Source of the DNA: Chara braunii
Lineage: Eukaryota; Plantae; Charophyceae
DNA length: 64,000 nt
Assembly (NCBI GenBank): GCA_003427395.1
Contig: BFEA01000004.1
Span: forward strand, 3,628,334-3,692,333
Direction: 5' to 3'
Shown: positions 7,892 to 56,280 of the stretch, piece after piece
Numbering within the stretch: the stretch's first letter is position 1
Layout of the letters: each line of letters begins with the position of its first letter
Notes under the pieces: model-generated
The model's database searches: none
Seen by the model: the letters and a program-made list of their open reading frames with translations, nothing else
What the model was told of the DNA's origin: nothing
Made by a program: the position numbers and the translations under genes

Positions 7892-9540
7892 TCACACCAG
7901 ACCTTCGTTAGAAGAGTGTGACCCGATCCTGCCAGCATCGATTAGCCTGACAAACTTGAGATTCAACAATAATTTTTTTTGCAGATCCCTATCCAACTGT
8001 TGCAAAAGACTTCTACAAGTCTTTTCAAAGTCGAAGTGTCGACTCCGACGATATGCCAAAATCCAAGAAATGAGTCCGGAGAGACGCATTGGCAATGAGT
8101 TGGGTACACACAAACGATCAAACTTCCCATACTGGCGGAATAAAAGACCCTCACACGCGTGAAAATCAGGCTGGCTGCTAGGGTCAGCCTGATCAAGAAT
8201 GAGACTAAGGTTCAGATCCTTGGCAATGTGTTCGACCAGATCCTCCTTCAGTTTTTTTCGGAGGTCATATGAGTCCACATGGGAAGTTAAAAACTCACGA
8301 TGGCGCAACAAAGCATCAACAAAACGGTTATAACAACCTTTCGTGTGTTTCAGTTCAAAATTGTAAACATCAATGTCATGCAACCAGCGGGTCAGCGTTG
8401 GAGAGAGATTCGTTTGTGTTTTAATCCACTGCAAGGTTTGATGATCTAAGTAGATCTTTAAGTGATGACCCAAGAGGTAGTGCTTCCAATGTGTGAGCGG
8501 TTCGCGCAAGGCATAGAGCTCTCACATATACGTGGAGGTAGCTACCTTGTGCCTGGGCATGCGTTTGCTGTAATACTCAAGCGGACACAGACCATCGTCA
8601 TCATTTTGTTGCAGCACTGCACCAATCCCATACTGGCTCGCGTACGTAGTGACTACTAACGTGAGGTTGGGATCCGCAATGCAGAGCACAAGATGACTTA
8701 CCAAAGCCTCTTTCAAGGCTCTTGGAACACAGTCTCGTTTCCCACACCGCGCATAGGCAACGTTTTTGCTTGTTAGTCTCGAGAGTGGGTGAGCAATGCC
8801 ATAAAATTTGGTTACAAATTTTCGGTAATACGAAGCCAAACCAAGGAAAAAACACAATTCGCGCACGTTCGTCGGTTGAGGTCACTTTCGTATGACCTCA
8901 ACCTTGGTTGTCTCCGACTCATGGCCATTTGCAGACAACCGGTGCCCGAGATAAATGGCTTTGTACCTTTTAAACTCAGATATCTCTAAGTTGAGGTGAA
9001 GCTGTGCCTCCTTGAGGACTTGCAAAACCTCCTCAAGATGCTTAACATGCTCTTTCATGGACTTGCTAAAAATTAGGATGTCATAGAAGTAAACAACAAC
9101 AAACCTATTAAGCTGATGGCGGAGGACCTTGTCCATGAGGCACTGAAATGTGGCTGGTGCATTCATAAGACCGAAGGGCATAACGATGAATTCGTACATC
9201 CCATCGTATGTTTTGAATGCAGTTTTGTGCTAGTCGCTCGGATCAACTTCAATCTGGTGGTTGCCATATTTGAGGTCGATCTTGGAGAAGACTTTGCACC
9301 TACCTGCCGTATTTAGCAGATCGTCTATGCGAGGCAAAGGATAAACATTATTTCTGGTGATCCAATTTAGGCCACAATAGTCAATACACATCCGGAGTTT
9401 GCTTCCTTTCTTCGGCACAAACAAGACAGGTGCACCGAACTCAGACTCACTAGGCCTAACCCATCCACGATCAATTATATCGTCAAGTTGTCTCCTCAAT
9501 TTCTCCAACTCGCCTTGTCCCATACTATAGACGTAGTCCT
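7892..9540 (-). pseudogene. Reverse transcriptase and RNase H fragments (Gypsy pol)
   Basis: SEFGAPVLFVPKKGSKLRMCIDY, YPLPRIDDLL, FSKIDL, YEFIVMPFGLMNAPATFQ, VYFYDILIFS, FLGLASYYRKFV, YASQYGIGAVLQQ, WKHYLLG. Confidence 0.95.
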
Positions 9541-9949
9541 TGTGTTTGACCGGACGCTCGGAAACTCCACGAGGTTTAGCCCGACCTTCAGGAAATCGAT
9601 CTAATAGACGGCGAATGTTTGTTGGGACTTCCGGTGGAGGACCATCCTCAGCAGGAGAAAGAAACTCATATTGAGAATTTACAACAATTACAACCAAATT
9701 CGAAGTACTTGGATCAGAAGTAGAATGATTTTTTATAGTAGAAGTAGATGGAACAGAAGTAGAATTACTTTTCGAGGTAGAAAATTCATCAAAAGTAAAA
9801 GGCACATGGAGAGGCTTTACAAGAGCTACATGCACATGCTAAACTCCCTTGCGTCTGCGCACTGATTTGCGGAATTGTTTGCACTCAAAAGAGTTACAGG
9901 GGACTCGCTCGTCTCGTCCAAGAGAACGGTACGCTCATTCCCCTTGGCA

Positions 9950-10782: not shown

Positions 10783-11485
10783 TAGTTTATTGGTAACTAA
10801 GTATTGTATTATAGAGCTTCGTAGCACCGTGTTCGCGTTCGGAGGAGAACGCGAACATGTTTGCCCGAACGCGAACAAGCGTTCAAAACCCTTCGAACGC
10901 AAACATGAAAAATATTCAACAAAAAAAAAAACATTCTCAAAAAATTCTGAAAATAATATACGTTATGTAAAATAATAAAACAAGCAACTTTTGTTTTGGA
11001 GTCATGTTCAAATTCTCAGCCAATCATGAGTTAAAAATCAAAAACCGAAAAAATATATATATATATTTTTTCCATACAAAAAAAAAAAATGTTCGCGACC
11101 TGTTCGTGCGAACGCGCGAACATGGAGGGGTGCGTGCGAACGTGCTCGCGTGCTCGCACGAACAGGTCGCGAACATATTTTTTTCTCGTAAGGAAAAAAA
11201 ATATATATATAGTTTTTTCGGTTTTTGATTTTTAACTCATGATTGGCTGAGAATTTGAACATGATTGCAAGGCAAAAGTTGCTTGTTTTATTATTTTACA
11301 TAACATATATGTTTTTCAGAATTTTTTGAGAACGTTTTTTTTTTTTTTTTTAATATTTTTTATGTTCGAGTTCGGAGGGTTTTGGACGCTTGTTCGCGTT
11401 CGGGCGAACATGTTCGCGTTCTCCTCCGAACGCGAACACGGTGCTACGAAGCTCTATACTACAATACTTAGTTACCAATAAACTA
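10783..11485. mobile_element. ~700-bp fold-back (palindromic) MITE-like element
   Basis: The left arm begins TAGTTTATTGGTAACTAAG at 10783 and the right arm is its reverse complement, ending at 11485. Near-identical ORFs (MFKFSANHELKIKNRKN) occur on both strands. The centre lies near 11124-11141. Confidence 0.92.
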
Positions 11486-11949: not shown

Positions 11950-14710
11950 GTTCATTTTCATAGAGGGGTAGAAAAAATCGGTTCCATAGTATCTGGCCAA
12001 CAAACCGAACTTTTCTCATTGAGTTCGATCATCCAACTGGAACTGACGCATATGTGTTAGACTCTCAAACCTTAACTAGACATCTTGCAGACTGAGCAGG
12101 ATATTAAGTGGGCACTTACAACTTTCTACACAGAGTAACTAGGGGGACAGTGGGAGGGATGATTGCTCGTGTTGAATGGGGGGGAGACTAGGATGACTCG
12201 ACTGGGCAGGGATGGCCCAAGGACTACTATTTGGTATTCAATGACGGGATTAACATTGATCCCTCCTTCCCAATGAGACCCCCATCTGAATATCCAGACC
12301 TCTTCCCACCTCACCCCCTCTCCCTGGTGGAGGGCCTGGAGGCTCTTGTTTGATCACAACTTTTGCTGCACCACAAGCAAGATCCACCGCCGGTGCCTCC
12401 CGAGGAGGGAAACAACTTCAGCGTTGCGACGAGCTTTCGGATGCTACACACTACTGGAGCCCGGGAACTAGGCAAGCGTGCAACTGGGGGGTGCTGTCAC
12501 CCAGTAGCAGGGTGAAATGAATTGAATCAACAACTCTGCTCTCTGCGAGATCATTTGAAGATAGACGAGGTGGTGGCTGAGAGGTGACTAAAGAGGAGGA
12601 TAGCAGCTAGCAGAAAGGACTTAAGCTTCACTGTTGGAGAAAGCGCTAACCATACATAAGTGGTGATGGGAGATGCTAGATATGATAGGCTAGAAGAGGC
12701 GCCCTTTTCAAGGGATGAAGAGACACTTCTATCCACACAACTTTTCCTACCGCTCAGTCAATCCCCCTGGGTAATTTGGGGTAATCAATGTTGGCGGGAT
12801 ACTCTCATGTCTGTTTCGCTGGGGGGCAATGCAGGGAATGGATGGGCACAATAGAATGGAGTGGGGACATATCTGATCTGCAACAGCAGTGCTAAAAAGG
12901 CAATAGAGACGACCCCCTGATTTCCAATAACTTGACTGATATAAAACTCTATTTCCCATTACGCCCCCCAGTTGAGTCCATGATCCCTTTCCACCACGTG
13001 CTCTATCTCTAACAAAAGTTTTGTGCTAAATGGTCTGATTTTGAGTAGCTTAATGATAACGCCCCGAGGATGCCCGCTGGCTGGATGACATTGATGAATT
13101 TCTTCGACCCATGGAGAACAGCCTCACACCAGCCCAGCAGACAAAGCTAGATTTCTCCCTCAGCGAGGAAGAAATCTGGACGACTCTCCTCTAGATGGAG
13201 GAATTCCGGAAAGTCATGTGGTCATTCTCAGTAACGATATGATGCAGTTCTATATAACGGTTTGGGAGACGAGGGAGATGGGGGAGTTGTTAGGGCAAGG
13301 GGAGGCGATAAAATGAATCTTAGGAACTATAGGTCTATAATGGTAGCCTATAAGATGATATCCAAAGTCCTAGCTAACCGCATGATTAAGGTGATCGGGG
13401 ACCTTATTCATCAGACCCAGACAGGTTTCATTTGGAAGAAACATATAAGATAACATCCTCCTTGTTAATGAGATGATTAAATTATCCCGCCAGTCTAAAA
13501 GCAATGCAGCCTTTGTTTTCGTAGATTTTGAAAAGGGATATGGCCACCTCGATTGAATTTTCCTCGATAGATGTTTGCAAAGACTGAATTTCGGCCCAGA
13601 CTTTCGAAAATTGGTGTGGATCTTACATCAAAACGCGACAACCTTAGTCCAGGTGAATGGTTTGCTGACACCAGAAATTAGGCTACAAAGTTCGGTCAGG
13701 CAGGGAGACCCGATTGCTCCTTTCCTCTTCATCATAATAATGGAAGCCATGTCCGTCAACGTCCGTTGCAACAGAGACCTCGAGAAAATCTAGATTGCAG
13801 GCATACTAGAGGGGTTCATCCCGGTCTGCAACCTGTTCGCGAACGACTTGACAATAATCGTGGAAGCGCTAACTCTCAACATGGAGGAAATCCAAAGGGT
13901 CATGGACCGTTTCTGCCTCTAGTCAGACATGGCAGTCAATTGGGGGCAGAAAACATTGGACTGGTGGCTACACCAGCAAAGAGGTCAGCCACATGAAATA
14001 CCTCGTATTACATGGTTGACCTCTGATGTAGTGATCTGAATTCTTGGGGTCAAGATGACAACACACCACCACCCTGCTGAAAATGATGATTGACTCACTT
14101 CCCCGACCGTGGCCAAGCTCTCCCAATGAGAGAAGGTTAACAACAGTCGTATTTTTCATCACCACTTCAGGACGCCCTTCACCATTTTAGGATGCAGCTT
14201 GCCTAAACAAGTGGTTTTCAGGGTTTTCGAACCTTTCACCACTTCAGGACCATTCAGATCTGAAAATCCTGAATGGTCCTGAAGTGGTGAAAGCTCCGAA
14301 GACCCTGAAAACCACCTGTTTAGGCCGGTTGCATCCTCAAGTGGTGAAGGGTGGTTTTCATGGTCTTCGGACCTTTCACCACTTCAGGACCATTCAGGAT
14401 TTTCAGACTGCCCAAAACTCTCACTTGACCACTTCAGGACACCCTTCACCACTTCAGGATGCAGCCTGCCTAAACAGGTGGTTTCAGGGTCTTCGGACCT
14501 TTCACCACTTCAGGACCATTCAAGATTTTCAGATTGCTCAAAACTCTCACTTCAGAATTTTCATTCCTGAATTTTCAGCTACCCGATAACCGTTTGTGTT
14601 CCCAATGGAACCACACGCACGCATTGCTTTTCGGACGGGCCTTGGTGATAAATAATGTGGTGCTGGCCACATTATGGTATAAGTTTGTCTTGTGGCCATT
14701 CAGCAAGGCA
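11950..14710 (+). mobile_element. Decayed, rearranged L1/Tx1-like LINE ORF2 fragments (RT at ~13080-13990)
   Basis: NYRSIMVAYKMISKVLANR, QTGFI, FVDFEKGY, VRQGDPIAPFLF, LFAND (the YADD-equivalent), GRALVINNVVLATLWY. Confidence 0.9.
14129..14599. mobile_element. Mobile satellite cassette, short copy, flanked by direct repeat TCCCAATG
   Basis: Contains CCTTCACCACTTCAGGA units in both orientations. TCCCAATG lies at 14121-14128 and 14600-14607. Both termini are shared with the 23.76-25.46 kb copy. Confidence 0.85.
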
Positions 14711-19834: not shown

Positions 19835-21559
19835 CTCAGACTGGAGCGCCATTCTCTCGTCGCTACTGTTCTATCGAGTTCGGCGACGACTTTACGGCAG
19901 AGGTCGACCCTAGCCACGGGGACGTCCCCGAGGACCACAAGCTTCGGAATGTGATCTAGTACCACTTGGATCACGAGACTTTCGCGATGGATTGCCGCTT
20001 GCAGGCGGCAATGTCCGCCATGGGTCGTGCTTGCAGTAGGCTTGCACAAGTTGGCGCCTGCATGTTCGTTGTTCCTCAGATAGACCTCCCACAGGGTTTC
20101 GTCCCTCCTCGCGGAGGCCTATCCCCTTAGGAGCGCACCGTCCTTGAGGCCCGTCGAGGTTGCCTTCATTGCCGCCAAGATGGACACACCTCCTTACAGT
20201 ATCCATACCATGCTGCCCTCGATCGGCACTATGCTGAAATTTCTTGTCAGCGTCGATGTCAGTCCCTCCTCGGCCCCGCCCGACCACTCCCAACCAGCTA
20301 GCCACGATGCACTGTACCGTTGAGGCCTCGCTCGTAGCCGGCTTCCCGACCATCGAATCCCAGTTTGCCCCTTTGGCTACCACAACAGAGGATCCTTAGG
20401 ACACGACGGACGCAGTTTCTTTTGACCCGTCGTCTGTCGAAGTACCGTCTTCCCCACAACAGACCGCCACATCTAGTTCTTCTCCTTTGAGATTTTCGAC
20501 GCATCGCGCCATTCGCATAACTCACTGTAGCAGTCAGCCGACGACTTGCGATGACGTTATGTCATCTCTCTTGGATTTGAGCATTCTTCAGGCTCGTTAG
20601 AAGTGACTCACGAGACAAATAAACGTCCCGCGTCTTCTTCTCGTACCGCTCTCTGACCTTGATCACACCCTCCTCATTATTCTCATTCGCCATCTACGAG
20701 GGTGTGCCGCACTTTATGAGACTTCGGGTCGCAGTGGGATTTTGTTCACCCTCACGTGATTGAGGAAACTCGTTTAGCTACCTCTGAGCCTCGCTCTCCT
20801 ATCTCCGTTACCCTCAGAGATAACAAGAGCAAAGATTCTTCGATCACACAGTCCCTGACCTCCACTTTTCTCTCACCCTCCAGCCATTGGATAGTACCCT
20901 GGCGCCTCGACGCTACCATTTCTCCGCATTCTTCGACGTGTTGGAGACTGAGTACGACTTTATCCTTGACACTCCGTGGTCTCGCAAGTTCCGTGGCGCA
21001 GAGGCCGAATGGGCCACTGAGACACTCATTCTCAAAACGAAGTGTGGTCAGACCTATCGAGTCTCCTTCATTGGCACTACGGGCGACACCCTTACCTCCC
21101 CAGGACCCTCGTCCTTCCGGGTCCCACCCGAACATTGCCTTCACCACTTCTCGCCAATTTATTCACTTCATACATCAGGAGGACGCCACCTTGTACGTGG
21201 TGAATGTCATGGATCTTCTTCGCTATGATTCACTATGTCCAAAGCTTAATCCCCCTGACCCTTCCTCCATCTCGCGGCTCCCATCTCTACATCCACTCCT
21301 CAATCTGCGGATACCCCGTCGACATCGCAGGTTTTTCCGTCGTTTACTGGCAAGTCCACATATACGTCTCGTGCCGATACAGACACTAAGGAACTCGCGC
21401 GGTTCACGACCGACTTCGAACCTGCCGCTCATGACCTTATTCGAGAGTACCCCGACGTCTTTTCCCCGTATTTCTCATACAACGAGATTCCTCCGATGCG
21501 CAGTGTTGAACATTTTATCCTGCTCGTGCCAGACTATCGTGTCCAGCATTAGGCACCCC

Positions 21560-22960
21560 ATAGACACTCGATTCTAGAGGCGACAGGACTCAAGCGTCCG
21601 CTTGAGGAGCTCCTTCGACTGGGTTTCATTAAACCGAGTAACTCCCCTTGGGGTGCACCCGTCCTCTTTGCTCGCAAAACGAAAAAACTCAACGCCTCTA
21701 CATGATTACCGCAACCTTAACCGTTACATGATTAAGAATAATTATCCCATGCCTCGCACGGATGAGCGTTTTGACTGTCTGGCAGGCGACCGCTTCTTCA
21801 CAAAGATCGATCTTCGTAGCAGTTATCACCTGATCCACGTTGTCGTTCAGGACCAGTCCGAGACCGATTTTTTGTCACGCTTCGGCCACTACGAGTTCAG
21901 GGTGATGTCATTCAGACTCACCAATGCACCCGCCACCTTCCAGATGGCGATGAACAATATCTTTAGGGACATTCTTGAATAATACTTTTTTTTGTACCTG
22001 GACGACATTTTGGTATACATTCGTACCTTAGAATACCATCTCAGACACCTCCGCGATGTCCTACGACACTTACGGAAGCATGGCTTCTATGCGAAGCTTA
22101 GTAAGTGTCACTTTGTCCAAGGCAAAGTGAATTTTTTAGGACACCATGTGTCTGATCAGGGTTTCCACATGGACGACGTGAAGATCACCGCTGTCACGGA
22201 GTGACCCATCCCCACATCCGTCAAGTAGCTTCGCGGTTTCCTATGGTAACTTCATCTGGGATACGCTAGGTATTCGTACGTCCTTACCTCCACCCTCCTT
22301 CGTAAGAACCCGCCATGGTTCTGGACACCTTTCTGTGATGATGTTTTTTGCACCCTCAAGAAGACGGTGACTTGTGCGTCGGTTATTCGCCTCCCCGGTT
22401 TTGATTGTTCCTTTATAGTTACCAACGACGCGTCAGATTTTGCAGTAGGAGTTGTACTTTCTCAACTGTTTTCTCACTTGTCTTGATTCCCTTTATCCCC
22501 ATGTTCCCTAATTTCACCCCCCTCTTGCTGACAGTGCTTCTCGAATGACGCTTATCCTTCCATCACTTCCCTCCAGTGGCAGTCCTTTCGTCACTTACTC
22601 CCTGACCATCGTGGAGGATGAGATTGTCAAGGCTTGTGCTGGGGATTGCGATATCGTCTTCTACTTCCGTAAGCAACTGCCTACCGAGATAAACTACATT
22701 GTCGATGAATGTGAGGTTCTCACAGTAGTTTTTGCTACCCGTCACTGGTGTCATTATCTGCACGAGGCACCCTTCACGGTGCATATGGAAAACTCAGTTG
22801 TCAAGGTTTTTCTCACGAAGCTCAAACTTTACCATTGACAGACACGCTGGTGACGTGATTTATCTGAGTTCAGTTTCGCCACCCAGCCTATAAAGGGTGA
22901 AACGAACTGTGTCGCCGATGCCTTGTTTCACCGCCATTACCATAATCAAGAACCTATCCA
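21560..22960 (+). pseudogene. Gypsy RT and RNase H fragments
   Basis: DYRNLNRY, YPMPRTDE, FTKIDLRSSYH, YEFRVMSFRLTNAPATFQ, YLDDILVY, KLSKCHF, TNDASDFAVG, HWCHYL. Confidence 0.93.
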
Positions 22961-23089: not shown

Positions 23090-23439
23090 AACTTTCATTT
23101 TGTCAAAATTGACATTTTTTATTTTTTGAATGAAATTGAAACTAAGTTTTTTGGCCGAAAACTCGTCGAAATTTGCTGCTCCTGAGGGTTCGACGTTCTT
23201 AAAACGTTGGACCCCCTGGATGTATGTAGACCGTGACTTAGCTTCATACCAGATACATCTAGTGGAAATCGCCTAATTCTATCTGATCTGAATCGAGGTC
23301 CAAATACATCCAGGGGGTCTAACGTTTTAAGAACGTCGGACCCTCAGTAGCAACAACTTTTGACGAGTTTTCGGCCAAAAAATTCGGTTTCAAGTTCATT
23401 CAAAAAATAAAAAATATCAATTTTGACGAAATTGCAGTT
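23090..23439. mobile_element. Palindromic MITE of the AAC...GTT family, inserted in the Gypsy pol
   Basis: Arms CATTTTGTCAAAATTGA...TTTTGGCCGAAAACTCGTC and their reverse complement GACGAGTTTTCGGCCAAAA...TCAATTTTGACGAAATTG. Same family as the 30.9, 56.3 and 59.6 kb copies. Confidence 0.88.
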
Positions 23440-23763: not shown

Positions 23764-25456
23764 AGAGAGAAGGTAAACAACAATTATATTTTTCATGATA
23801 CTTAATTTTACCATTCACCACTTCGGGACCGTTCGGAATTTCAAGAATGTCAGAACACTGCGAAGATAGATTGTTTTCAGAGTGTTCAAACCGTTTACCA
23901 CTTCAGGATTGTTCGCGATTTTCAGCCTGCCGAAACAGATGGTTTTTAGGGTGTTTAGATCCTTCATCACTTCATGACCGTTCAAGATTCTTAGACTGCC
24001 TAAATAGTTACTAAGATAGATTGTTTTCAGGGTGTTTAGACCCTTCACCATTTCATGATTGTTTGCGATTTTCAGTCTACCTAAACAGGTTGTTTTCAGC
24101 ATGTTTAGACCCTTCACCACTTCAGGACCGTTTGTTATTTTCAGACTATCTAAACAGTTGTCAAGATAGATTTTTTTCAGACCATTCAGACCCTTCACCA
24201 CTGCAGGATTGTTCGGGATTTTCAGATTGCCTAAAAATGTTGTTTTCAGGGTGTTCAGACCCTCACCACTTCAGGACCATTTATGATTTTCATATTGTCT
24301 AAACAGTTGCCAATATAGGTTGTTCTCTGGGTGTTTAGATCCTTCATCACTTCAAGATGGTTTGGGATCTGCAGATTGTCAAAACAAGTTGCTTTTAGGG
24401 TGTTAAGACTCTTCACCACTTCAAGATTCTTTGGGATTTTCGGGTTGCCTAAGCATTTGTCAACATAGGTTGTTTTCAGGGTGTTTCAGACCCTTCACTA
24501 CTTCAAGATCGTTCACGATTTTCAAGTTGCCTAAACAGATTGTTTTGAGAGTGTCCAGACCCTTCACCACTTCATGATTCTTTGAGATATTCAGATCGCC
24601 TAAATAGTTGTCAAGATAGGCAGTTTGAAAATCCCGAACCATTTTGAAGTTGTGAAGAGTCTGAACACTCCAAAAGCAACCTGTTTAGAAAGTCTGAAAA
24701 TTTTGAACCATCCTAAAGTGGTGAAGGGTCTGACCACCTTGAAAGCAATATGTTTAGGCAGTCTGAAAATCCCGAACCATCCTGAAGTGGTGAAATGTTT
24801 GAACAACCTAGAATTTTCAGGGTGTTCAGACTCTTCACCACTTCAGGACGGTTTGGGGTTTTTAGGGTGTTCAGACCCTTCACCACTTTAGCATGGTTCG
24901 AGATTTTCAAACTTCCTAAACAGGTTACTTTCAGGGTGTTCAGACCGCTCATCACTTCAAGATCGTTCGGGATTTTCGGGTTGCCTAAACAATTGCCAAG
25001 ATAGATTGTTCTCAGGGTGTTTCATACCCTTCACTACTTCGGGATCGTTCAGGAATTTCATGTTACCCAAACATATTGTTTACCGGGTGTCCATACCCTT
25101 CACCACTTCAGGATTGTTCGGGATTTTCAGATTGCCTAAACAGTTGCCGAGATAAGGAGTCTGAAAATCTTGAACCATCCTGAAATGGTGAGCGGTCTGA
25201 ACACCCCGAAAGCAACTTATTTAGGCAGTCTAAAAATCCCGAACCATCCTGGAGTGGTGAAGGGTCTGGACACCCTAAAAGAAACCTGTTTAGACAGTCT
25301 GAAAATCCCGAATTCATGGCAAATAGAATGCGGGTGCATACTGCTCACCATGAAGAACATACCTCTCACTCCGAATTCGGGGCAAATAAACGACCGTAAA
25401 TTTCTCACTTCAGAATTTTCATTACCGAATTTTCAGCTATCCGTCAACTGCTTGTG
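23764..25456. mobile_element. Mobile satellite cassette, long copy: 66/78-bp units with internal inversions, inserted in the Gypsy integrase
   Basis: About 20 copies of GACCCTTCACCACTTCAGGA..GTTC..GATTTTCAG..TGCCTAAACAG. Inverted blocks at ~24620-24810 and ~25158-25315. The integrase frame FVGFP|HPPTERGH rejoins across the insertion. Confidence 0.9.
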
Positions 25457-30894: not shown

Positions 30895-31238
30895 AACATT
30901 CATTTCGTCAAAACGAACATATTATATTTTTTGAACAAAATTAAAATTGAGTTCTTGGGCCGAAATCTAGTCCAAATTTTTGGCTCCTTAGATGTATTTG
31001 GAGCCCCTAGATGTATTTGGTCATAGCTTGAGACTACATACATCTAGGGGGTTCCGAGAACGTCGGACCCCCTAAATGTATTTGGTCATAGCTTGAGACT
31101 ACATCCATCTAGGGGGTCCGACGTTCTAGGAACGCCGGACCCCCAAGAGCCAAAACTTTGGACCAGATTTCGGCAAAAAAACTCAATTTTAATTTCGTTC
31201 AAGAAATATAATATGTTCATTTTGATGAAATGGTTGTT
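30895..31238. mobile_element. Palindromic MITE of the AAC...GTT family with 4-bp TSD AAAG
   Basis: AAAG-AACATTCATTTCGTCAAAACG ... CATTTTGATGAAATGGTTGTT-AAAG. It has no counterpart in LTR-like copy 2. Confidence 0.9.
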
Positions 31239-31912
31239 AAAGCGGTTCTTCGAAGCTGCGTAGTAGCAACTTGGTCAGGGGGAGTGACATCGAAGCTTAA
31301 GGGAGCGGTCAGGCATCTGCGAGAGGGTCATTGTTGTCAAGAGAAAAACCGTTAGGGTGTTGTTATACAACTTTTGGTTGCGGATTGACTGACTTGCTAC
31401 GCATTTTGACCACTATTGTGGGGCTCTCAGACATGCTGAGATTTCAATGCCCTCTCTTTGCAAGTTGAGTTTGTTTCATTTTTGTATCTCAAGAGTCTGA
31501 AACTCCTTACGTCTTTCTTATTATAAGTCTAGTCTGTGGTTACGAGAGGAAGGTGGCAGGCGGGATTGGAAATCCGTAGGACCGCATCAAGGGCATGTGG
31601 GAGGTCCGCCCACCGATTGCAGGAACTTTGTCGGAACTCAAGGGGAGTTATGGAGACAGGGAATTATCGTGTAATTTTCTTTGCCTTGTGTGAACCACTA
31701 TACCCCTATTTTATTACATCTCTCTAATCTGATTGAAATGTATGCGTGCAACCTTATCTTTTATTGATTTTTTATGGAACTTAATCAGATTGAGTAAAAG
31801 AAAAGATTGTGTGAATCCTGCTTTGCATTGTTGCCTGAAGTCAGACAAACGGGAATGAATTAGGGGAAGGTGGAAGAAATGTGGTCCTGATTGAGAATGT
31901 GGGTCACAAAAA

Positions 31913-32640
31913 GGGCAGGCATGTTTCTAAGTTAAATGAACTGATCGTGATGAATTTTTTTTTACTTGTTTTTTTATGGGTCAGACACTGTTTCTAAGTT
32001 GAATGGTCTTATTGTTATGGTTGTGCTTTGGGGTGTGCATAGTTTGGTTTTGAGGCCAAACATTGTTTCTGAGTTGAATGACTTGACCTACTTGCTTTTT
32101 TTTTTAAGGTTTCTAAACGAACCCCGACATGTTTCTAAGTTGAATAACAAAGAAATCTCTTCTTTTCTTGAAGTTCTAAGAAGTAGGGTTGAGTATTGTT
32201 TCTAAGTTGAATTACTCAAACTCTTCTTGTATGTTCTTTTGAGCGGATTCAGGCTTAGACTAAGTATTGTTTCAAATTTGAATGACTTAGTCTTACAAGT
32301 CGGTCGGATAGGGTTTTAAACTTGAATCAAGGTGAATAATCTTACTAAAGCTTATCATTAAAGGAAGAGAGTATGAAATTAAAAATATAACAAAGATACT
32401 TAGGTAGGTTGAACATTGTTTCTAAGTTGAATGACTCAACGTTATGCCTTGTTGAACATATGAGGATAAAAAAAATACTTCAAATTTGAGCTATTAAATG
32501 GTCAGGGTTGGCACAACAGGGTTTCTAAGTTGAATGATTTGGTCATATCCAAATTAAAAAAAAAGTTTTATTGTGCCATGTGTTTTGTTTATAATTATGG
32601 CGAGACTTAACATTGTTTCTAAGTTGAATGATGTAGCCTA
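31913..32640 (-). repeat. Array of ~9 conserved-loop hairpins with unique spacers (copy 1)
   Basis: The core TGTTTCTAAGTTGAATG (up to 2 mismatches) starts at 31922, 31989, 32064, 32130, 32197, 32268, 32417, 32520 and 32614. Several cores are flanked by unit-specific inverted repeats. Confidence 0.9.
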
Positions 32641-32919
32641 TAAGACGTGAAGTAAATTATTGTATTAGGGTTTATCTAACTAAGAGATAATGAACTACTT
32701 ATATATTAAAAATAACCTGGAATTTTGGTGAGAGTACTTACTCATTGTGGTATGGCTTTGCATATGAATTGAGTATAAGCTCTGCCTAATTTTAGTCATT
32801 GATTTGGTAGGTAGTCACTTTAAAGCTCGCCATGTGCTGGAGCGATAGAAGATGACTTTGATTTCACATATCTTCTGTGTTAAGAATTGGACTTGTACGA
32901 TTTGAGATACCAACTCTCT

Positions 32920-33530
32920 AAAGTAGTTGCTGCCGAAAATTATACAAGATCTAAGAAGTTATGTAATTTTGCAGGCTTTGCATAATAAAATTGTCCAACT
33001 TATTTTTTAATTAGTATAAATTTGACACTGTGTCTTCTCTAAATGAGATGTTGTTCAAATTTTAACTAATTCAAGGAGTTTGGCATATCCTTCTATACAA
33101 AGTTATAGGTTTTTGTCTACTTCACATTTCTGAGTCAGTAGGGATATGAGAAGCTACCTGCTCTAAAGGAGATGTTATCCAAATTTTTACTAATTGAGGG
33201 CGTTAGATAAAATTTGTCTTTGAAAAAGTAAGAAAATTTTTATGACCCGAATCTAGATTAGTATAAATTTTTTTATAGTACTTTCCTATGGGAGGTGATG
33301 CCCAAATGTTTGCTAATCTGAGGAGTCAGATAAAATTATGACATTTTTGAGTTATAAGTTTTCTGGGATTCTCATGTTTTAAATCTTATATAAATTCTGC
33401 GAAAGCACTTTTCTTACGGGAAGTGCTTCCGAAATTTCATGAAATTTAAGGAAGTTAAAATATTTTAGGACTTTGAAAGTTTGACGATCTACCCTTGCTA
33501 AAGGAGATGCTGACAAAATTCTTGATATTT
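32920..33530 (-). repeat. Diverged ~124-bp tandem array in the LTR-like module (copy 1)
   Basis: GATG....CAAAT..T..CTAAT...GG.GTT.GATAAAATT-like motifs near 32931, 33047, 33171, 33297 and 33423. Confidence 0.75.
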
Positions 33531-35300
33531 TTAAGACAAGTGTAAGAGATAAGGTAAGAAGGTAAGATTGTTCCATAGTCCCTTAAGCATAGCTTGGGTA
33601 CTGACCTGTGTTGTATTGCATGACATTTTGTTTCAGATTGTTTCAAGGCTTGACTAGCTTCAGGCTGATCCTAGGAGGATCATCTTCTGTTATCTTTTAT
33701 TAACAAGTCGGTTTTCGGCTTAACTCTAATTCATTCTCGCTAATTAACCTAAGGCCTTACCTCCTGTGGGTTGATTTTTTTTTTTTATCGGGAATTTTAT
33801 TAAATGACCATTTAAAAGAGATTGGGTGCTCTTCTTCTGGAAGGTTGGACAAAGGTGGGGCCTTGTTTGACTAAGGCAAGAGGTGAGTACAAAAAATGGT
33901 TGAATTTTTATGCGATCATGTGCATATTTTAAAGGGAGTCACATTGTGATTGTGAGAGTGATCGCGCCGTGTCCAATGAACCCGTTATATTTATGTTTCT
34001 GAGTACTCGCGAGGTCTACTTTCACCATGCACGAGGATTGAGCAGACTTCTACCGAGAGAAAAGAAAGATTCACTTTTATTTTTGCTTTCTGGATTTTTA
34101 TAGTTGGACGTTGAGGTCCGTGGCGACTTTCAAAGTCAAACCCCTTGACCTGTATCCAGACCTCTGACGATGGAGCCCCGTTCCCAGAGTTAGAGACGTT
34201 TGACCACCACTAAGGGTCGAAGCCGCCTACCCCTCCTCTCCGCAGTATGCAGAAGAGGGTAGGTCTCGCAATCACATATGCAATTGTCTAGCGTTAAGGA
34301 ATTAATCCCTCAGGACGCGGGTCATCCGACACTTGAGCGCCGAAAACGACCCTAAAAATCTTTGAAAATCGTGTGGTCAGGGGTACCACATAGTTCACCA
34401 TGATTGTGACAGCTTGCGTACTCATGCATGGCTGGTGGACATGGAAAAGTTTACGTTGCCGTGATATTTATTCAGAGTTTTGTGAGCGATGCCCGCCTAA
34501 TTCCTTCGTCGAAAGTTATGAGTTGAATGTTAACAATGGACTAGGCGTGATTTACGTATGAAGCTTGATTTTGTCTTGTGAAGTGTGTCGCGTGGTTAGA
34601 TTGGTCATCCTAGTCGACTGACGTAGGATCGCATTCGAGAAATCAGCATCTCGGGCGACGATTCGTCCACGGGTCTGATTCGGGCGTTAACCGGGCGTAC
34701 CCCCTATGCTACAACGAACGAGAAATGTCGTCGGCTCAACCACCTCTGCGATCGCATATAAAAAGTTTTCGTACATGGTTTGATAGCTTGGCGGGGATAC
34801 ACCCACCTAAGGGATGGTGACAAGTCTTATGGGTGGAGGTAAGTTGTACCTCGTGGGACCCTATCCTGTCGTAGGGGTTCGCGAGAGGTATGGCTGACGC
34901 ACTTGGCCGGAGCGGCAATGCTCTGCGACGAACTTATGCAAATCCTGCGTGACACAGTCGGGAGGCCCTTGCGGGACCAATGCGCTTGACATCGGTACCA
35001 GGCCAATCCAGTCCAGTCCATCCAGTCCAGTCAGTCAGCTAGGGGTATACCCCAACTGCAGTCTATTTCAGTATCCTTCTTCACTTGCACAGTTTGGAGT
35101 ACGTGCGTGTTGAGTCTGTGTTGGAGTTGCGCTGGTCCTTCCAGCTCCATCCCCATCTCCCCCATCCTCATCCCTTCGTCTTGATCTTGATGGACCGCCA
35201 TCCCGGCGGGTCTGTCACAGTCTGCCTTTGATTCGAACTTATAAGTCATTCGAAGTGTCACACTGTGTTCGGCAGCTTCACCTTGATAAGTTTACCCATC

Positions 35301-42585: not shown

Positions 42586-44299
42586 ACGGTGTGTTGAAGT
42601 GGGGTTATCTCTTCGCATCTTCTGTATATTTTTTATTATTGGTTTTCGACCATCTTCGCTTGCGGCACTCTCAAATTTTCTTTTCGTTGTTTGATGTAGT
42701 AATTATCTTTCTCTCCCCCATCTCTTCCTATTAAATGGAGAACTTATGACAATTTCTAAAATTGATTGATCGCTCGAACGATTTGCATGGAGGGTTATCG
42801 ATCGCAGAGCCAAGGGATTATGAGGAGTATGGGATAAGCTTCCTGCTGATGTATGGAAAGGCGTATGTAATCCCGCCGTTTTTTTTTTCCGACCATGTTT
42901 CTGTGTATGCAACATCGATCGACTGAATGATTTTGCATTAAGCCTGTAGAAGTTATCTCCTCGAATAAACCCAGATCAGGATAGATGCATGCACAACTGG
43001 TAGGTTACAGATTGTATACATGCCTAGGTATGAGTTGGATCTTCCTCATGCATGATCCAAGCACGATTGATATCTGATGCGCGCGAATGTTACTCACTCT
43101 CTCTTTCCTTCTGCCCATCGAACATTTGTTTGAGTTGCACTGAGTATACGGGCATCGTTCCTTCGTAAGAGCAATAAGAGTAGATTAACGGTAGGCGTAA
43201 TACTTATGTTGGAACACATCATGTGCACGCACGTATACGGATGACACCCGAACGGCAGTTAATGCCAGTTATCACGCATATGGGTGTCTGCATGATTCGT
43301 TCCTGACCCTATCACGCCTGGTACACCCGAATGAATGAGTTAAGTACTTTTTGCAAAATATGGACATTGGTGTTTTGTTGTGGATCACTAACCGTGCCTG
43401 CTTAAGGGACCTTGAGTACCGAGAATACTGAGAAAGTGAACAACTTTTCCGTCGATCGAACTTAAGGCTCCCGGCCTAACCTCGCCAGACTGAAAACGAT
43501 CGATTATGTGCCTGGGATTTTGAGAGGGTCATCGGACGGAATTCCCGAATCCCGGATCACCCCGACACCCGTAGCCACCAGTACTACAACACATCGGGAT
43601 TCGTCGCGATCGAAACCAATTCCCCTCCATTCTATCTCCTTCTCCTTTATCACAATCTAGCGGCCGTCCCTTGGGAGTCAATAGCCCCCTCCTGGCCCCG
43701 GAGGTACGGCTCTGAGTATCGAGAGTATTATACTTATTGAGCCGGGGGATTTGTCCGGCGAACACGGCTTGAAGCTGAGTGTCGAGAACATGGCCTCCGG
43801 TTGAGGCCATCCATGTCAGATTCCGAGATCTACAAAACCCGCCAACGACAACTGTTTACACAGAGAGACACCCAATGTGTTCCCTCCGTACATCGAGTAC
43901 GAACCCGCCCTGGACGATGGGGCAGGCAAAACTAGCCGCTCGACTCTGAAGTGTGAAACTGAAGATCTGGTCCTACGCTAGACCACTTGCATCCCTGTCC
44001 TTGAAATTTGGCACTGGAGATCTCAGTTCTGGCTTGGGACTCCACCCCTACTTTCCTAAAATCCTTGGCACACCCCTACTACGCACTTCCAGGCCCCCTC
44101 CCACTTTGAAAACAAAAAGTCCCGCTGGGCGTGAGGTTAGTATGAGAGCCGACATGTATCAAGATCAAGGACTGACAAGTGATCCGGCTCCATATCTCGA
44201 CCGATCTGGTGAGCCCCAGGCGAGGACGGTCTAGACAAAGAAACACGTTAAAGCGCGAATCCGTAGTCACCCGAAACCGACCCACCCACTGCCCCGCCT

Positions 44300-46142
44300 G
44301 ATTTGTATCTTTTCAACCTTGCACATCATCTAGCCGGAGCATGGCTTGCCACGCTTCGATCACAACAACATGACAATGATGAAGCCAGTATAAACATCCC
44401 CGCCTGTCTAGGAGGAGATGCGCACCATTGGTTCAGTACCTACGTCTTGATCGATCTCCCGACCTTCGAAAGGGAACAGACTTTATTTATGATTAAGGAC
44501 CGAGTACAAAAACCTCTCTAGTTCATCGTTGAATACCAAAGCCGGTTCTACAGACTGTTCATAAAGTCCGAACGAGAAGAGAATATAGAGACCTGTTTAT
44601 CAACGGGCTTAGGAGCCGCGCGATGCGCGCCAAGCTGCGAAAACAATTCTCCCCCATTGATCACACCACACAACAAATCATGGACATTGCAGAAGAAATA
44701 AAACGGAAGTTCGCCACTAGCCTCCTTGAAGAGGAAGACCACGCTAAAGACGAAGACTCTACTGAACTAGCCTGGGCGCGAGCGGAATTAGATGCACTCC
44801 AGGACAAGTTCAAAAACATGGGGGTTGTATCAGGCCCTGTCACCGACCTAGAGCGGGTAGTGACTAAGAGACCTCTTTTCGATCTAACCACAAGACCATC
44901 GGTGGTGAAAGTTGCTGCACCCCCCACGAGCACAGTACGAAAGGCATACGATTCCAGCGCAGTGTTAGAACTAACAAGAACTTTGAAGAACATTAATTTG
45001 AAAGATAATACAATGTCGGTATCGAAACGTTGATGAGATCGATGCGTCCCGGTCGGAGGCCAGCCTGTACAAGCGGCAAGGGGACCCACCATATCACCCG
45101 TCGCCAGGACAAACGAATGCCATACGTGTCATCAACCCGGACATATAGGAGGGGATTACCCCCACATAGCTCCACAGACTTGGGTAGGAGCCACCCCCGT
45201 GGCAGCTGCCCCTGTAGCGAATGGACCAGGGAGAGTCGGAACGATGGTGGAAGAAACGGAGGGGGTGATGGTCGGGGCAACGGTTATGGAGGAAGCAGCA
45301 AAACTCATCCCCCTCGATCAATATCTCACGTTGGACTATCCCGGGTTAGGCATGATAGGAGCAGTTCAACCGGCTGATGATGAGCGAGAAGTTTCGGAAT
45401 GGAAACCCTCGCCCCAAGAAATGAAATCCGGAGAATCAGATTTTTCACTAGACAGATCAACGCACTTAATATAGTTCGAGCCCTAGATTACTGTATACCC
45501 TTACCGATCGGGCACCTTCTGTCCATATACGAACAAGCTAACAACAAAATGCTACAACACTGCAAGGCTAATCGAAAATAATTCGCCCTCGCAAAGCTTG
45601 CCGCCATCAAGGGAAAGGCGTCCGACAAAAGACAGAAACTTGATAAAGCAAGGACCTCAGAGTCCGTATGCGTAGATTGGTCCAGAAAGACGATCACTTT
45701 TTGTGCATCAAGCCCATCCCGTAGATATCAGCCGAATGTGATATAGAGGTATGAGGAATACCGTACAACGCCATCCTTGACTCAGGGCAGCCGTATTGGC
45801 AATATCACTCAGGTTAGTTGAGCAAGTTGGAAGAAAAAAATATTTAATCCTCATCCCAGAGGGAGACCACCTCGTCTCCGCAGACGAAGGGAAAATTAGG
45901 GTTGCTGGTCTGAGCTTGGTCGAATGTCAAACGTCGCTTTTCGAATAGGAAAAGTGCATGCTCTCGGTGAGGCGATTGTACTAAATGTGACGTCATACAA
46001 TCTGCTCATTGGTCTGCCTTCCCTCAACTCGCTACAAGCAAATATGGATTTCGAACGACGAATGGTGGTCCTCAAGAATACAAGAGGAAAGTCGCATATC
46101 GTCCCTGTCGAGCACATCGGTCTCGTACGGGGACCCTCCTGA
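44300..46142 (+). pseudogene. Degenerate LTR-retrotransposon gag plus aspartic protease
   Basis: Gag-like LGGDAHHWF. AILDSG at ~45770. FRIGKVHALGEAIVLNVTSYNLLIGLPSLNSLQANMDFERR matches a gag-associated protease C-half. Truncated where the LTR-like module begins. Confidence 0.75.
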
Positions 46143-47799
46143 CCACGTCACGCAGGATTTGTGGCTGGACTTTATCATTTTATCGTGGTGCAATGGAGCT
46201 TCCGTCGCCTCTCCGGCCGAGTGCGCCAACCATACCTCTCGCGAACCCCTACGATGGGATAGGACCATGCGAGGTACAACTTACCTCCACCTGCGGGAGT
46301 TGTCACCATCCCTTAGGTGGGCATGTTTCCCCTCGAGCCACCGAACCACATGCGAAAGTTAATGAGTTGCAAACGCAGAGGTGCCCCAACCGAGGGCGTT
46401 TCTCGTACGTTATAGCATAGGGGGTAGCGTGGTCCAACGCCTCTATCGGACCCTTAGGCGAACCGACGCACTGGGGGCTGAAGTCCCAAGCGTGACTCGA
46501 CGTCGGTCAACTAGGACGCATCCAACTTACCACACGTTACATCACGCTAAAAACATAAAATCAAATTACACACACAAATAAAACACTCCTAGTCCCCTTA
46601 GTGTCGAACCCATAACCTTCTGATACGAAAATCGATTAGGCGTCGAACGTGAGTCTTAAGATAAAACCGTGCGGACGCAAGACTTTCTCATATCGACTAG
46701 CCATGCATGCATATGCAAGCAGTCGCAACGATGACGTACTAAGTAGTACCCATAATAATGTGACCCTCGATGGTCTCGAGGGTCGCGTTCGACACTCAAG
46801 TGTCGGCTGACACGCGCCTTGAGGGGTTAATCTTTCAACGTTAGACAACCGTCAAGGCGGTTGAGAACCACACCCTTTTCTGCACCCTGCGGAGAGTGTG
46901 TGGTACATAGGTTCTTGCCTGTTGTGGAAGTCGGGTTTTATTTCCTGGAGCCGAGTTCCATCATCCAGAGTCTGGAGAGAAGTCAAGGGGTTTGATTTTG
47001 ACGTCTGCCACAAACTCCAACGTCCAACTATAATAATTGTAAGAAGCAAGGGGGTAAAAGAAAAATCTTCATTTTCTCTCAACACATAATTCGTTTAACC
47101 CTTACGCACGATCACAGTAGGCCGCGCGGACACTTGATACAGATATATAAATACAAGACGATCACTTCTCATAATCACAGTGAGTCTCCCTTCAACCATA
47201 CATATGAAATCGCAGACAATCAAATCCAGAGTCTGAACCACAAACATACCTGCAATCACACCAAAGATTCAACCAAAAATCCATACACTACACGGGGTCA
47301 ACTTCAACCACTCTCTATGTTCATACCCCTCGCTTTAGCCATACAAACCCCATCTTTGTCTAACCTTCCATAATAAAATTCCCAGTACCTTTTTTAAATG
47401 GACATTCGATAAAGTCCGGGTGAAAACCCAACGAAACAATTCAAACCACAAGAGCTAAAACCTTTAGGTTGAGTAGCAAGAGTGAATTAAAGTTGAGTCG
47501 TAAACCGACGAATTGACAACCGACCTGTTATCAATGATAACAGAAGATAATCCTCGTGAGATCCAGTTGAACCTAGTCCAATCCTTAATCGATTTGATCA
47601 AAAAATTACATGTAACAGAAGACAAGTCAATCCCCAAGATTAATACTTATAAGTGCATGGAGAACAAACCTCCATATCACACTTTAGTGAAATCCAATCC
47701 ATAACTAAATATGAATTTACCTCTTGGCAAGTGCCCAAGCAAAGGTCAACCTCTGGCGGCGCTACCTCTATGCATGGTTGATCGCCAAAATTTTCCCTA

Positions 47800-48400
47800 T
47801 CAAAATATATCTAACTCCTTTCAACTAAGAAAATTTCGGCAGCGCTTCAAATTTCCGTAGGAAAAGTGTCTTTTCATAATTTATACTCGTTCGCATATGA
47901 AAACTAAAATGATATTCAACTCTAGAAAGTCAAATTTTGTTTAACTCTCTGAATTAGGAAAAATTCGGCAACATCTCCTTTAGAGAAATAGACTTCCAAA
48001 ATTTATACTAAATCAGATATGAACTCAAAGAAAGATTTGACTTCTTGCCAAGACAAAATTTAACTAACTCCTTAGATTTGTAGAAATTTCGGCAGCGCTT
48101 TTCGTAGAGAAAATAGTTTTTCAAAATTTATATAAAGTTAAATACAGATTTGAAATGATTCTGACATCACAAAGTCAAATTTTGTCTAACTCACCGAATT
48201 AGTAAACATTCGGGCAGTACTTCTCTTAGAAAAGATGGTTTTCCATATTTCTACTAAGCCAGACATAAACTTTAGATAAATGTTGAACTTTGAAAAACTA
48301 AAATTTAACTAACTCATTGGTTTTGGTTTTGTAGAAATTTCGACGGCGGTTCTCGTAGGAAAAGTAACTTTCTAAAGTTATAGAAAATCAAGTCAAGTAA
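47800..48400 (+). repeat. Diverged ~123-bp tandem array, 5 units (copy 2)
   Basis: TAACTC...AAATT(T)CGGCA...TAG.(G/A)AAA units near 47811, 47941, 48064, 48186 and 48309. Confidence 0.8.
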
Positions 48401-48669
48401 AAGATCTCAGAAAATGCGAGAATTGACCTAAATAAGAAACTGAGAAAATGCAGAAATTGAACTAACTCATATGACTCTGGCACGTGGCAAGCAACTAAAG
48501 CGACTACCTATCAAACTGAAACTCAAACTAAGTAAAACTCTCATTCGGCCACATGCAAGTCCATACCACAACTGTAAATACTCTCACCAGCCCCTAGGTT
48601 AAACCTTATCAACAGTAATTCATAGTCTTTCAATAATTTATCATTTATACCCAACTTACATAAGACATA

Positions 48670-49392
48670 AAGCAAAACCATTAAACCTAGGAACAAAGTC
48701 TAGCTCAACCATTGAATATACACAAACACATGACACTACTACTTGTCTCTTCTTTGAGCATATGACTAAGCGAAACAAGCATAGTCGCCCTAAACTATCT
48801 AAGTAACCAAGTTATAATACTTTTTTGCTCTTAGTCTTTTAAGGCAGCATAAGACTGAACAATTTGACTTAGAAACGAAGTTCAACCTGCTCCTTTTTAC
48901 CACCAATTTATATTTTTAATTAATATATTTTTCTTTTTCATGATAAGTTATAGTCAGACCATTCAACTTAGAAACAAAGTCTGACTAGCTTGTTCGTAGA
49001 TAAAATAATAATAAAGTATAAATAAGTTTATCATTTTGTTCCAACATGTGTGTGACTCCAGATCAGACCATTCAACTTAGAAACGAAGTTTGATCCTTTG
49101 TCTGATTCCCTTATAATAAAGCAAAAAGAAGTTTGAGTCATCCAACTAAGAAACAAAGCTCAAACTCCCCTCTTTATAAACAATAAAGAAACATCGTAAA
49201 CCCTAAAATAAACCAAGACGAAGAAACCATTCAACTTAGAAACAAAGCTTGGTTCCTGAAAAGACAATCGTAGACAGTCCACGCAAATCAGAGCAACGAG
49301 ACCATCTAACTTAGGAACAACGTATCGTCCTCGAGACAATTAAAAAAACTAAACATAGCACTGGGTCATTCAACTTAGAAACTAAGCCCAAC
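48670..49392 (+). repeat. Array of ~8 conserved-loop hairpins with unique spacers (copy 2)
   Basis: CATTCAACTTAGAAAC-like cores at ~48679, 48861, 48960, 49069, 49139, 49228, 49303 and 49367, most with unit-specific stems. Confidence 0.9.
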
Positions 49393-50828
49393 CTTTGGTT
49401 GACCCGGTCAGTCGCAAGCAAAACCACCTGTCTCTCGCCTTCCCCAAATTCACAACCCCTTTTTCAATCTGAATTCAGACAAGCAACAAAAATGAAATTG
49501 AAAATGGGCATTCATTCCTTTACTTAGCTCAGATTTATGTCCAGAAAATCAAACATAAACTCAATATGGGATGCATGAAGTATACTCAGTCAAACCATAG
49601 AAAGATGTATAGGTAAGGGTTTTATCTGGGTTTATAGAAGGGGATGATGATTACCACTCAGTTCCCTGCCCCCAGAACATCGCCTAGGTCCAAGCAGAGC
49701 TCCCACAATCTGTGAGGCAATCCTCCCACAGAGGCCTTGGCACGGATTACGAGTTGCAATCTCGCCCACCGCCTTCCTTTAAGGAGTCAGAACCAATAGA
49801 CTAGACTTAGAATAAGAAGGGCAGAAGGAGGAAAATTTTGTCACTCAGACCTTAGAATGGTGCACTCATACTCGTGTGAGAGCCTTCAAATATTCCATGC
49901 GTCTTAGGGTCCCGCAATGATGGCCAAATAAGCAGTAATCCCGCTAAACTAAAGTCAGAACGCTAAATGCTGACCTCCTGGTGGTCCTCGCAATCGCAAC
50001 AAACACCCCTTTCAAAGAAACTCGGCCACTCTACAGTCACTGACTTCCACTCCGGATAAAACAACAGTTGCGTAGTCCAGAAAGCCTGCATTCAAACACC
50101 ACCCTTGTATTCTACTTAACGTAGAGGTGTTAGACGTAGCAACTTCAATAGACTCAGCAACCCCACCAGTTGTTCACGGTAGCGAAGTACCAAAATACAG
50201 TAAATCACAATGTCACGATTGCTTTGCAGCAGACCATAAACAACACAGTGGTCTACTGCGCATACACAGACTGTGGGCGGAAACCAATAACAACCCCTTC
50301 CTGATCCTCGTTGTTGTGTGAACACGCAACAACATCACCAGTCGTCGACTGCAGTAGCCCAACTGAAATCCATCTTAGTTGCAGCTCCTAGACCGGACAG
50401 TTGCAGCAACATCTGTAGCGGAATAATTCCATAACTACAGCTTCCTCTCGTGAAACCCAAAGAGTTATTGGTTCTTCAGTCTGACCTGGTGAGTTTCAGA
50501 TCGGCCCTGCACCAAACAGGCAATGCCCTTCTGCCTCACTCTGCTGGCTCCACTTCTCCTTTTTCAAACTCGCTCCCCCAATCTATCGTATCTCGATGTT
50601 ACTGAATCTGACCGCAACCCCGACCCGATGCGGGTAACTCAAAGTAGCCAGGATCCGCCCTTTATCTAATAAGAAGAACCCTACCAGAAGCCGGAGTATA
50701 CTGCACCTATGTGACACCCTCGGCCTAGACTGCGGGCAATTCGGCCGCCTCGACCAAAAAAGTCGGCCGGCCTATTTTTTTAGTATATTTTTATACCCCT
50801 AAAAATACGTAATATATATATATATATA

Positions 50829-55305: not shown

Positions 55306-56280
55306 CTACTTCCCAGTTCACACAACCTACAAAAATTTGAGCGTAGTAGCCAACCATGTCTTCGTCATCATACCCACCATCCTGAGAACACGGAACGTCG
55401 TCTTCCATGTAGAAAGGAATATCTCCATACTACAACTCCCCCACCAACTCCATCGTGTTTCCGAAGAGCTGCGCTGCCATGTTTATCGTCGTCTCATTCT
55501 CTGCTGGCGGTACCCCTGTCCACGCGTCATGGACAACCACATCACCAACCGCAGATGCCGCGTGGCCAATCAAGGAGCCACGCACGTATGTTGGACGCGT
55601 GCAAAGGCCCAACATCCGAGGAGCATTCCCCCTCAGGTCCTAGTCGAGCCTGGGGAACCGGACCTCGTCAGTCCGCCAGGCGACGGGGCGCTAGCGCTAG
55701 TGCAAACTCCTTTACCCTAATTCAAATTCGGACCCGGTTCATTTCTAACCCTGGGCCCCTCACTCAATAGGGTTCAGCCTTTACTTGAGACAATAAAAAG
55801 CTCCCCACGAATAGACCGGAGCTCTGTTTGAAAAAAACAAGAGAAAAAGAAAGAAAGAACAAAAGGGATCGTAACCTGAGTATCTGTTGAGGCCTGGATT
55901 CATGTGCGCATCGCAAGTTAGCAGGGCGCCGAGTAGACGCACTTGGCGGTAGCCGCTTGTGCTCTACTGGGTCTTCTTCGGCCAATCGGTGATGGAATCT
56001 CGTCCCAAAGATCACACTCCGTGTTGGTTTCATTTGTTTTTCTATGGTTAATGGGGAGTTGTGCAACATGTATTTGCCATTTGGTGGTTGCTTGCGGACA
56101 TAACATGGGTAATCTTTGGCAAAACGAAGTCTTAGAGTGAAGTTTTAAGACCGTGATAATGAAACACTTTGATGTGGGGCTTACATAACTGCAAACTCGC
56201 AACCAGTCTGATGCACATAGGTTAGGGCCGCGATGGAGCACCGTTCAAATGTAATGTTATAGTGTTGCTCAAGCGCCTTA

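Follow-up and report, generated by a model that had tools for sequence, protein, structure and literature searches.

An array of fixed-loop hairpins with covarying stems in an abundant LTR-like repeat of Chara braunii

The window, i.e., the whole 64,000-nucleotide stretch of Chara braunii contig BFEA01000004.1 that was analysed, contains two copies of a long LTR-like repeat, each bearing an array of short units in which a conserved core is flanked by two arms able to pair with each other (Table 1). The two copies lie in opposite orientation, with 31405–34991 (+) aligning to 49928–46106 (−) at 62% identity over about 3.9 kb, and the identity between them climbs to 80% over the last 150 nt of the repeat. 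Summed contig depth shows that the repeat family is dispersed and very abundant, since it rises from about 10 in the flank to 76,000–266,000 in the conserved blocks, these values being sums of depth and not copy counts. The hairpin unit at 32418 was covered at 440–550 times the single-copy depth, with a sharp fall outside its arms. The GC content of the array region, in 2-kb bins, is 33–37%.

Table 1. Position of the repeat copies, hairpin arrays and adjoining elements in the window.
Feature	Position	Strand	Description
Palindromic MITE-like insertion	30895..31238		Separate element, adjoining copy 1 on its upstream side
LTR-like repeat, copy 1	31335..34991	+	About 3.66 kb; starts with TGTCAAG and ends with CTTGACA (7-bp inverted termini)
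Hairpin array, copy 1	31912..32638		Nine units; cores spanning 31923–32630
Core starts, copy 1	31923, 31990, 32065, 32131, 32198, 32269, 32418, 32521, 32615		Watson-Crick pairs of 8, in core order: 0, 5, 5, 2, 7, 8, 5, 4, 4
Most conserved block	34690..34991	+	70–80% between copies; highest contig depth; predicted to be structured; U5-side
Primer-binding-site-like motif	34992..35004	+	Directly after the CA end of copy 1
Broken gag-protease relic of a different Ty3/gypsy-type element	44297..46109	+	Protein similarity ends where copy 2 starts
LTR-like repeat, copy 2	46106..50035	−	About 3.9 kb; ends with CTCGACA
Hairpin array, copy 2	48671..49393		Eight units, in orientation opposite to copy 1; cores spanning 48679–49382
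Core starts, copy 2	49382, 49318, 49243, 49154, 49084, 48975, 48876, 48694	−	Watson-Crick pairs of 8, in core order: 4, 6, 4, 7, 7, 8, 6, 6

Both copies carry GACA at the point where their similarity stops, and the 3′ end of copy 1 is firm. On the contrary, the 5′ ends (31300–31335 in copy 1) are tentative in both copies, because upstream of 31405 the two show no significant similarity (z of 1.3 and 0.6). The candidate start of copy 2 at 50035 retains 6 of the 7 inverted bases and 4 of the 5 bases of a target-site duplication, while no target-site duplication was found around copy 1. A gapped scan of both copies on both strands, performed with the reference motif taken from the accessible part of PMC7215508 and with one degenerate position picked after the sequence had been viewed, retrieved the motif at 34992 as the only match within two edits; an ungapped scan admitting three mismatches missed it. 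The position of this motif makes + the predicted sense strand of copy 1. We consider it quite likely that the repeat is the LTR of a Ty3/gypsy-type family and that + is the sense strand of copy 1; on its sequence, the array is predicted to occupy the upstream, U3-side third of the LTR-like repeat. Neither a gag-pol of the repeat's own family nor an intact element was seen in the 64-kb window.

Outside the array, several helices were predicted in the conserved block 34690–34991 (+)/46106–46430 (−), one of them closing on the terminal bases and showing a double change between copies. The same block contains words of the type GGAG/GTAAGT, which, on the consensus we assume, we take to be 5′ splice-site-like; none of the 15 joints listed out of 589 was an RNA-supported splice joint. 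Downstream of the array, a second and more degenerate tandem repeat of about 125 nt is found in both copies (32930–33470 (+) and 47800–48390 (−)), with very high contig depth in parts, and a conserved block of high contig depth lies upstream of the array (31503–31640 (+) and 49700–49830 (−)).

Copy 2, which on its sequence is possibly a solo LTR, adjoins the gag-protease relic. Alignments of related proteins run up to 46109 in 20 of 24 cases and beyond it in none of the 24, and this stop of the relic's protein similarity at the end of copy 2 indicates that copy 2 was inserted into a gypsy protease gene; by tblastn, the host pol does not resume beyond copy 2. All five relatives of the relic that were looked up are labelled Chara braunii, and retrotransposon domains (protease, zinc-knuckle, RT or RNase H) are present in all eight that were scanned. 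No hit came from word-indexed protein searches with the gag piece, with the protease piece or with the interval 50076–50318; as relatives of the protease were found by the full HMMER search, these blanks carry little weight. In the interval 50076–50318, next to the repeat, an antisense ORF suspected on the basis of Chara gene models was not confirmed (best Atlas score 0.79).

Further broken gypsy-type RT/RNase H relics lie at 8168–9553 (−) and 21547–22465 (+). The palindromic MITE-like family represented just upstream of copy 1 has other members at 23090–23439, 56277–56418 and 59593–59815. Two long, near-perfect palindromes, 10783–11485 (90% over 706 nt) and 57381–57974 (94% over 597 nt), are probably foldback elements, and a minisatellite with 69/81-nt units in both orientations (23810–25312 and 14161–14603) forms nested inverted repeats. 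The tRNA scan gave no hit.

An earlier note on this DNA had described nine near-invariant copies of a 19-mer, spaced 66–149 bp apart. Allowing up to three mismatches, nine plus-strand matches were indeed recovered at 31920–32630, together with five on the minus strand at 48960–49385, that is 14 in the 64-kb window versus 0.05 expected by chance, a number reached by none of 100 shuffles; the core-to-core distances in copy 1 are likewise 66–149 nt. The wording "near-invariant" is too strong for the 19-mer, from which the units of copy 1 depart, in order, by 3, 1, 1, 3, 1, 2, 0, 2 and 0 mismatches. What is conserved is the 16-nt core GTTTCTAAGTTGAATG; a looser scan over 16 nt gave nine units in copy 1, as before, and raised the number in copy 2 to eight. 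Each unit was defined as an 8-nt arm, a 3-nt linker, the 16-nt core and a second 8-nt arm. Over the 17 units the mean pairwise identity is 88% in the core, 49% in the linker, which corresponds to the first 3 nt of the 19-mer, and 44% and 40% in the two arms. The four stems quoted previously are exact, with pairing of 9/9 at 32269 and 6/6 at 32198 and with mismatches of the A.C or C.A type only at 32065 and 32418, while in two of the nine units of copy 1 (31923 and 32131) the stem is gone, 0 and 2 of 8 Watson-Crick pairs being left. The array is absent from the Tandem Repeats Finder output, and a model built from the 17 units matched, besides those 17 (by construction), a single site at E 2.1.

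The spacers between units are AT-rich and 27–145 nt long. They had been described as unrelated to each other, which holds within copy 1, where 0 of 28 pairs aligned at z>3; among all spacers 4 of 105 pairs did so, all of them between copies and three in matching positions. The description does not extend to other members of the family, however, whose contigs show similar T-rich stretches from unit to unit (ATGTTT...TTGTTTT, with a period near 60–70 nt), as judged by eye on stretches of up to 40 letters among the rows listed (12 of 22 and 12 of 65). The T-rich spacer common to these members implies that the array began as a tandem duplication and that its spacers were inherited, not captured. 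The idea of spacers as unrelated cargo or as a small-RNA payload is therefore not sustained, as they are AT-rich remnants inherited from the tandem unit and the stems have 8–9 bp only. Stems of this length are too short for Dicer-type processing, and the helix ends well before the approximately 20 bp or more of a miRNA or hairpin precursor. The repeat-spacer layout is also that expected of a scaffold from which spacers or hairpins are released in the form of small RNAs, or of a CRISPR-like array with captured spacers, and the palindromes of Sirevirus LTRs are hot spots for siRNAs according to the accessible part of PMC4728375. However, the uneven length of the spacers, their AT-richness, the partial orthology between copies, the T-rich motif of other members, the arms differing in each unit and the lack of any Rfam match all weigh against these two readings, which we regard as very improbable.

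The pairing of the arms was evaluated on the 17 units of the two repeat copies. When each arm was matched with its own partner, 88 of 136 cells were Watson-Crick, versus 56.7 ± 6.0 after partner permutation, and 88 was reached by none of 200,000 permutations, which ignore the relatedness of units. Permutation tests on single copies gave 40/72 in copy 1 (P = 0.0013) and 48/64 in copy 2 (P = 7e-5). Changes on both sides occur at all eight stem pairs, and the covariation score was reached, on each strand, by 0 of 500 shuffles, which likewise ignore relatedness. For this reason a tree was used to check whether the set could derive from a small number of ancestral stems, taking in those units, 11 of the 17, that have five or more Watson-Crick cells. 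The stems of these 11 well-paired units are all different, and the best tree found counts 14 compensatory changes among them, with a floor of 10; considering all 17 units, the four possible combinations are present in 10 of 28 column pairs. Almost all arm changes are transitions, with 28 of 272 cells outside the purine/pyrimidine class of their column.

Sliding the register by 1–3 columns lowers the paired fraction from 73–77% to 18–43%. Pairing is present in 8–13 of 17 units at positions 1–9 and in only 2–6 of 17 at positions 10–14, and such a sharp drop past position 9 indicates that the length of the helix is fixed. Neutral decay of a minisatellite, with a core that simply changes more slowly than the rest, would agree with the tandem origin and with the loss of the stem in two units of copy 1, but not with a core so much better conserved than its arms, with near-random spacers and with at least 14 compensatory changes on the best tree. 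This reading is already largely refuted, and we hold it to be highly unlikely; the claim that an invariant loop on covarying stems sets the array apart from a decaying minisatellite was thus borne out.

As to the strand on which a hairpin might act, the earlier note had proposed that wobble pairs are strand-specific. This is true of the two units quoted in its support (32065 and 32418), but over the 17 units the bias is not significant, the arm mismatches being 17 A.C versus 11 G.T (P = 0.34) and, at stem positions 2–8, 11 versus 11. Position 1 alone holds six A.C cases and the predicted fold can bulge that base; indeed, in the predicted minus-strand fold of units 32065 and 32418 position 1 is bulged and CAUU pairs with AAUG. 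In the inner UUC/GAA helix the corresponding count is 4 versus 1, so that four of the five wobble cases still pair on the CA-rich strand, and arms and inner helix together give 21 A.C versus 12 G.T (P = 0.16). Within the family contigs, T>C at position 3 of the right arm makes up 19–21% of depth, with no A>G at the partner position listed at 4% or above. The allele shares at position 2 of the same contigs lean to an A.C excess that is biased by the reference, and they were set aside because the reference unit is already A.C at that position.

A consensus structure was returned by RNAalifold on the CA-rich strand only, with a weak energy of −1.76 kcal/mol and with six outer and three inner pairs around AACUUA, and none was returned on the G/U-rich strand. 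When the full array was folded, a pairing probability of 0.5 was reached by 5–6 of 17 units on either strand, with means of 0.23–0.39; the arm helix was likelier on the CA-rich strand in 10–13 of 17 units, and the mean pairing probability as RNA was 0.29–0.39 on that strand versus 0.23–0.27 on the other. Folding as DNA was almost without strand preference (means 0.20–0.25). We lean, at barely better than even chances, towards the CA-rich strand as the working one. If the primer-binding-site call is right, this strand would be antisense to the predicted genomic RNA, which weakens the earlier suggestion that the array serves Gag packaging.

Under the same orientation the CA-rich strand would also be the minus-strand cDNA, so that the hairpins might instead act on single-stranded DNA during reverse transcription, as pause, strand-transfer or nucleocapsid sites. 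The best units do fold as DNA, with a pairing probability of at least 0.9 in 2 of 17. Nevertheless, the near lack of strand preference and the low means of DNA folding, together with the fact that U3 minus DNA is single-stranded only briefly, make this reading improbable.

Poly(A) reads from related copies were found on the repeat in all three RNA runs (78, 1570 and 163 reads). As only 4 of 1811 reads are at least 99% identical, nearly all of them derive from other members of the family, and the RNA contains both strands of the repeat family. First-mate directions (+/−) at 31554 were 2/7 in X5, 79/38 in X6 and 0/34 in X7; at 35119 they were 1/11, 53/55 and 3/13, respectively, and at 34730 they were 119/28 in X6. 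Admitting dUTP-type libraries, whose strandedness is uncalibrated, the RNA would be chiefly sense in X5 and X7, with an excess of antisense in X6. The array unit itself was covered by 11 reads in X6 (6/5 by direction, with the same uncalibrated strandedness) and by none in X7. No RNA data set was listed as containing the exact sequence of copy 1, which does not count in either direction.

The scarce RNA over the array, the wobble bias that does not reach significance and the similar outcome of RNA and DNA folding would all suit another reading, namely that the core is a double-stranded DNA motif, such as a repeated U3 enhancer or a site for a protein of the element, with arms kept symmetric by hairpin-templated switching, at reverse transcription or at replication, or marking a cruciform. 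Template switching can maintain perfect inverted repeats even when structure is not selected for. The array is placed in the upstream third of the LTR-like repeat, a region in which, according to the accessible parts of PMC2829016 and PMC4728375, repeated cis-motifs are common. On the other hand, register and the 8–9-bp length are constant in all units, many different stems are found instead of one spreading variant, and the variants of the inner helix mostly still pair on one strand. Moreover, the palindromic LTR motifs described in the accessible part of PMC4728375 conserve their arms and not their middle, so that arms varying around a fixed middle are the opposite of what a palindromic DNA site presents. 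We consider the DNA-motif reading unlikely, although it deserves more weight than those discussed above.

Several fixed-loop hairpins with different paired stems and unconserved linkers are typical of known multi-hairpin RNAs, such as the IREs of the transferrin-receptor mRNA, the GGA hairpins of CsrB/RsmZ and the duplicated TAR hairpins of HIV-2/SIV, and the array has the same combination of conserved loop, covarying stems and several copies. Its loop sequence differs from theirs, however, and it is placed on the U3 side of an algal LTR, possibly in antisense; the likeness is one of functional analogy and not of membership.

Among plant retrotransposons, the Sirevirus RM arrays are comparable, being multi-copy, symmetric, hairpin-capable motifs in the upstream half of the LTR, with about seven palindrome copies per LTR, as reported in the accessible parts of PMC2829016 and PMC4728375. 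In the same parts of these sources, Sirevirus arms are conserved around a variable centre and the region is GC-rich, whereas here the CGG-CCG signature is absent, the variation falls on the arms, in matched pairs, around a fixed middle, and the region is AT-rich. Furthermore, Sireviruses belong to Ty1/copia, while the elements neighbouring the array are gypsy-type. Retand/Tat gypsy elements also carry family-specific tandem arrays in long non-coding parts, and provide a precedent for antisense transcription or genes near the 3′ LTR, but in those elements the arrays are whole-unit repeats located between pol and the 3′ LTR, with no covarying stems reported in the accessible part of PMC11963269. 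According to the same part of that source, tandem arrays are common in the non-coding regions of plant retrotransposons and their function is stated to be unknown.

The Rfam search gave no match at the gathering score in the window and none at E ≤ 5 in 31240–35200. Searches for the two-core pattern in metagenome contigs (19 loci) and for a single core in viral contigs (6 loci) returned 25 loci, none of which resembles the repeat by blastn. One of the patterns seen there, an evenly spaced, CRISPR-like repeat-spacer array on an unrelated metagenome contig (L016:465–1810), is a chance pattern match. Integron attC, heat-shock element, Pol III B box, hammerhead core and branch point were dropped by eye, against their consensus motifs. 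A description of the motif was not found in the literature searched on Chara retrotransposons and on covarying or repeated LTR hairpins; Chara repeat annotations may also be relevant to this point.

The motif is real, probably selected and apparently undescribed. We judge it modestly probable that the array is a multivalent docking platform, in which a protein reads the loop on single-stranded RNA of the LTR. By analogy with the multi-hairpin RNAs above, we infer that the fixed loop, the varying but paired stems and the constant register and length are the trace of selection for a protein-bound, single-stranded hairpin. A unit of about 60–70 nt would first have undergone tandem duplication on the U3 side of the LTR, after which selection would have held the loop sequence and its closing helix while the spacers drifted. 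On the CA-rich strand, the predicted fold would consist of an 8–9-bp helix, a 2x5 internal loop, the 3-bp UUC/GAA helix and an AACUUA hexaloop, and an antisense LTR transcript presenting it might act as TAR, IRE or CsrB do, recruiting or titrating a regulatory RNA-binding protein. If the other strand were the working one, the array would belong to the U3 portion of the genomic RNA, within its 3′ untranslated region, and might contribute to export, stability or packaging. For now, the array is a well-supported motif and not a mechanism.

The signature of selection on structure is measurable, thus making a function testable, and the family that carries it is a very abundant one in a lineage sister to land plants. 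A docking platform of this kind would add an RNA level of control to the U3 side of the LTR, which is usually read as a DNA promoter only, and, if the antisense strand is the one that works, it would point to a device of self-regulation or counter-silencing. It is conceivable, though rather doubtful at present, that an antisense RNA with 8–9 hairpins per LTR, produced from thousands of LTRs, acts as a sponge or recruiter of a host silencing or RNA-binding factor, and that the array represents a wider, unrecognised class of retroelement arrays of same-loop hairpins. If this were true, the LTR of a charophyte, within the sister lineage of land plants, would contain a CsrB- or TAR-like device.
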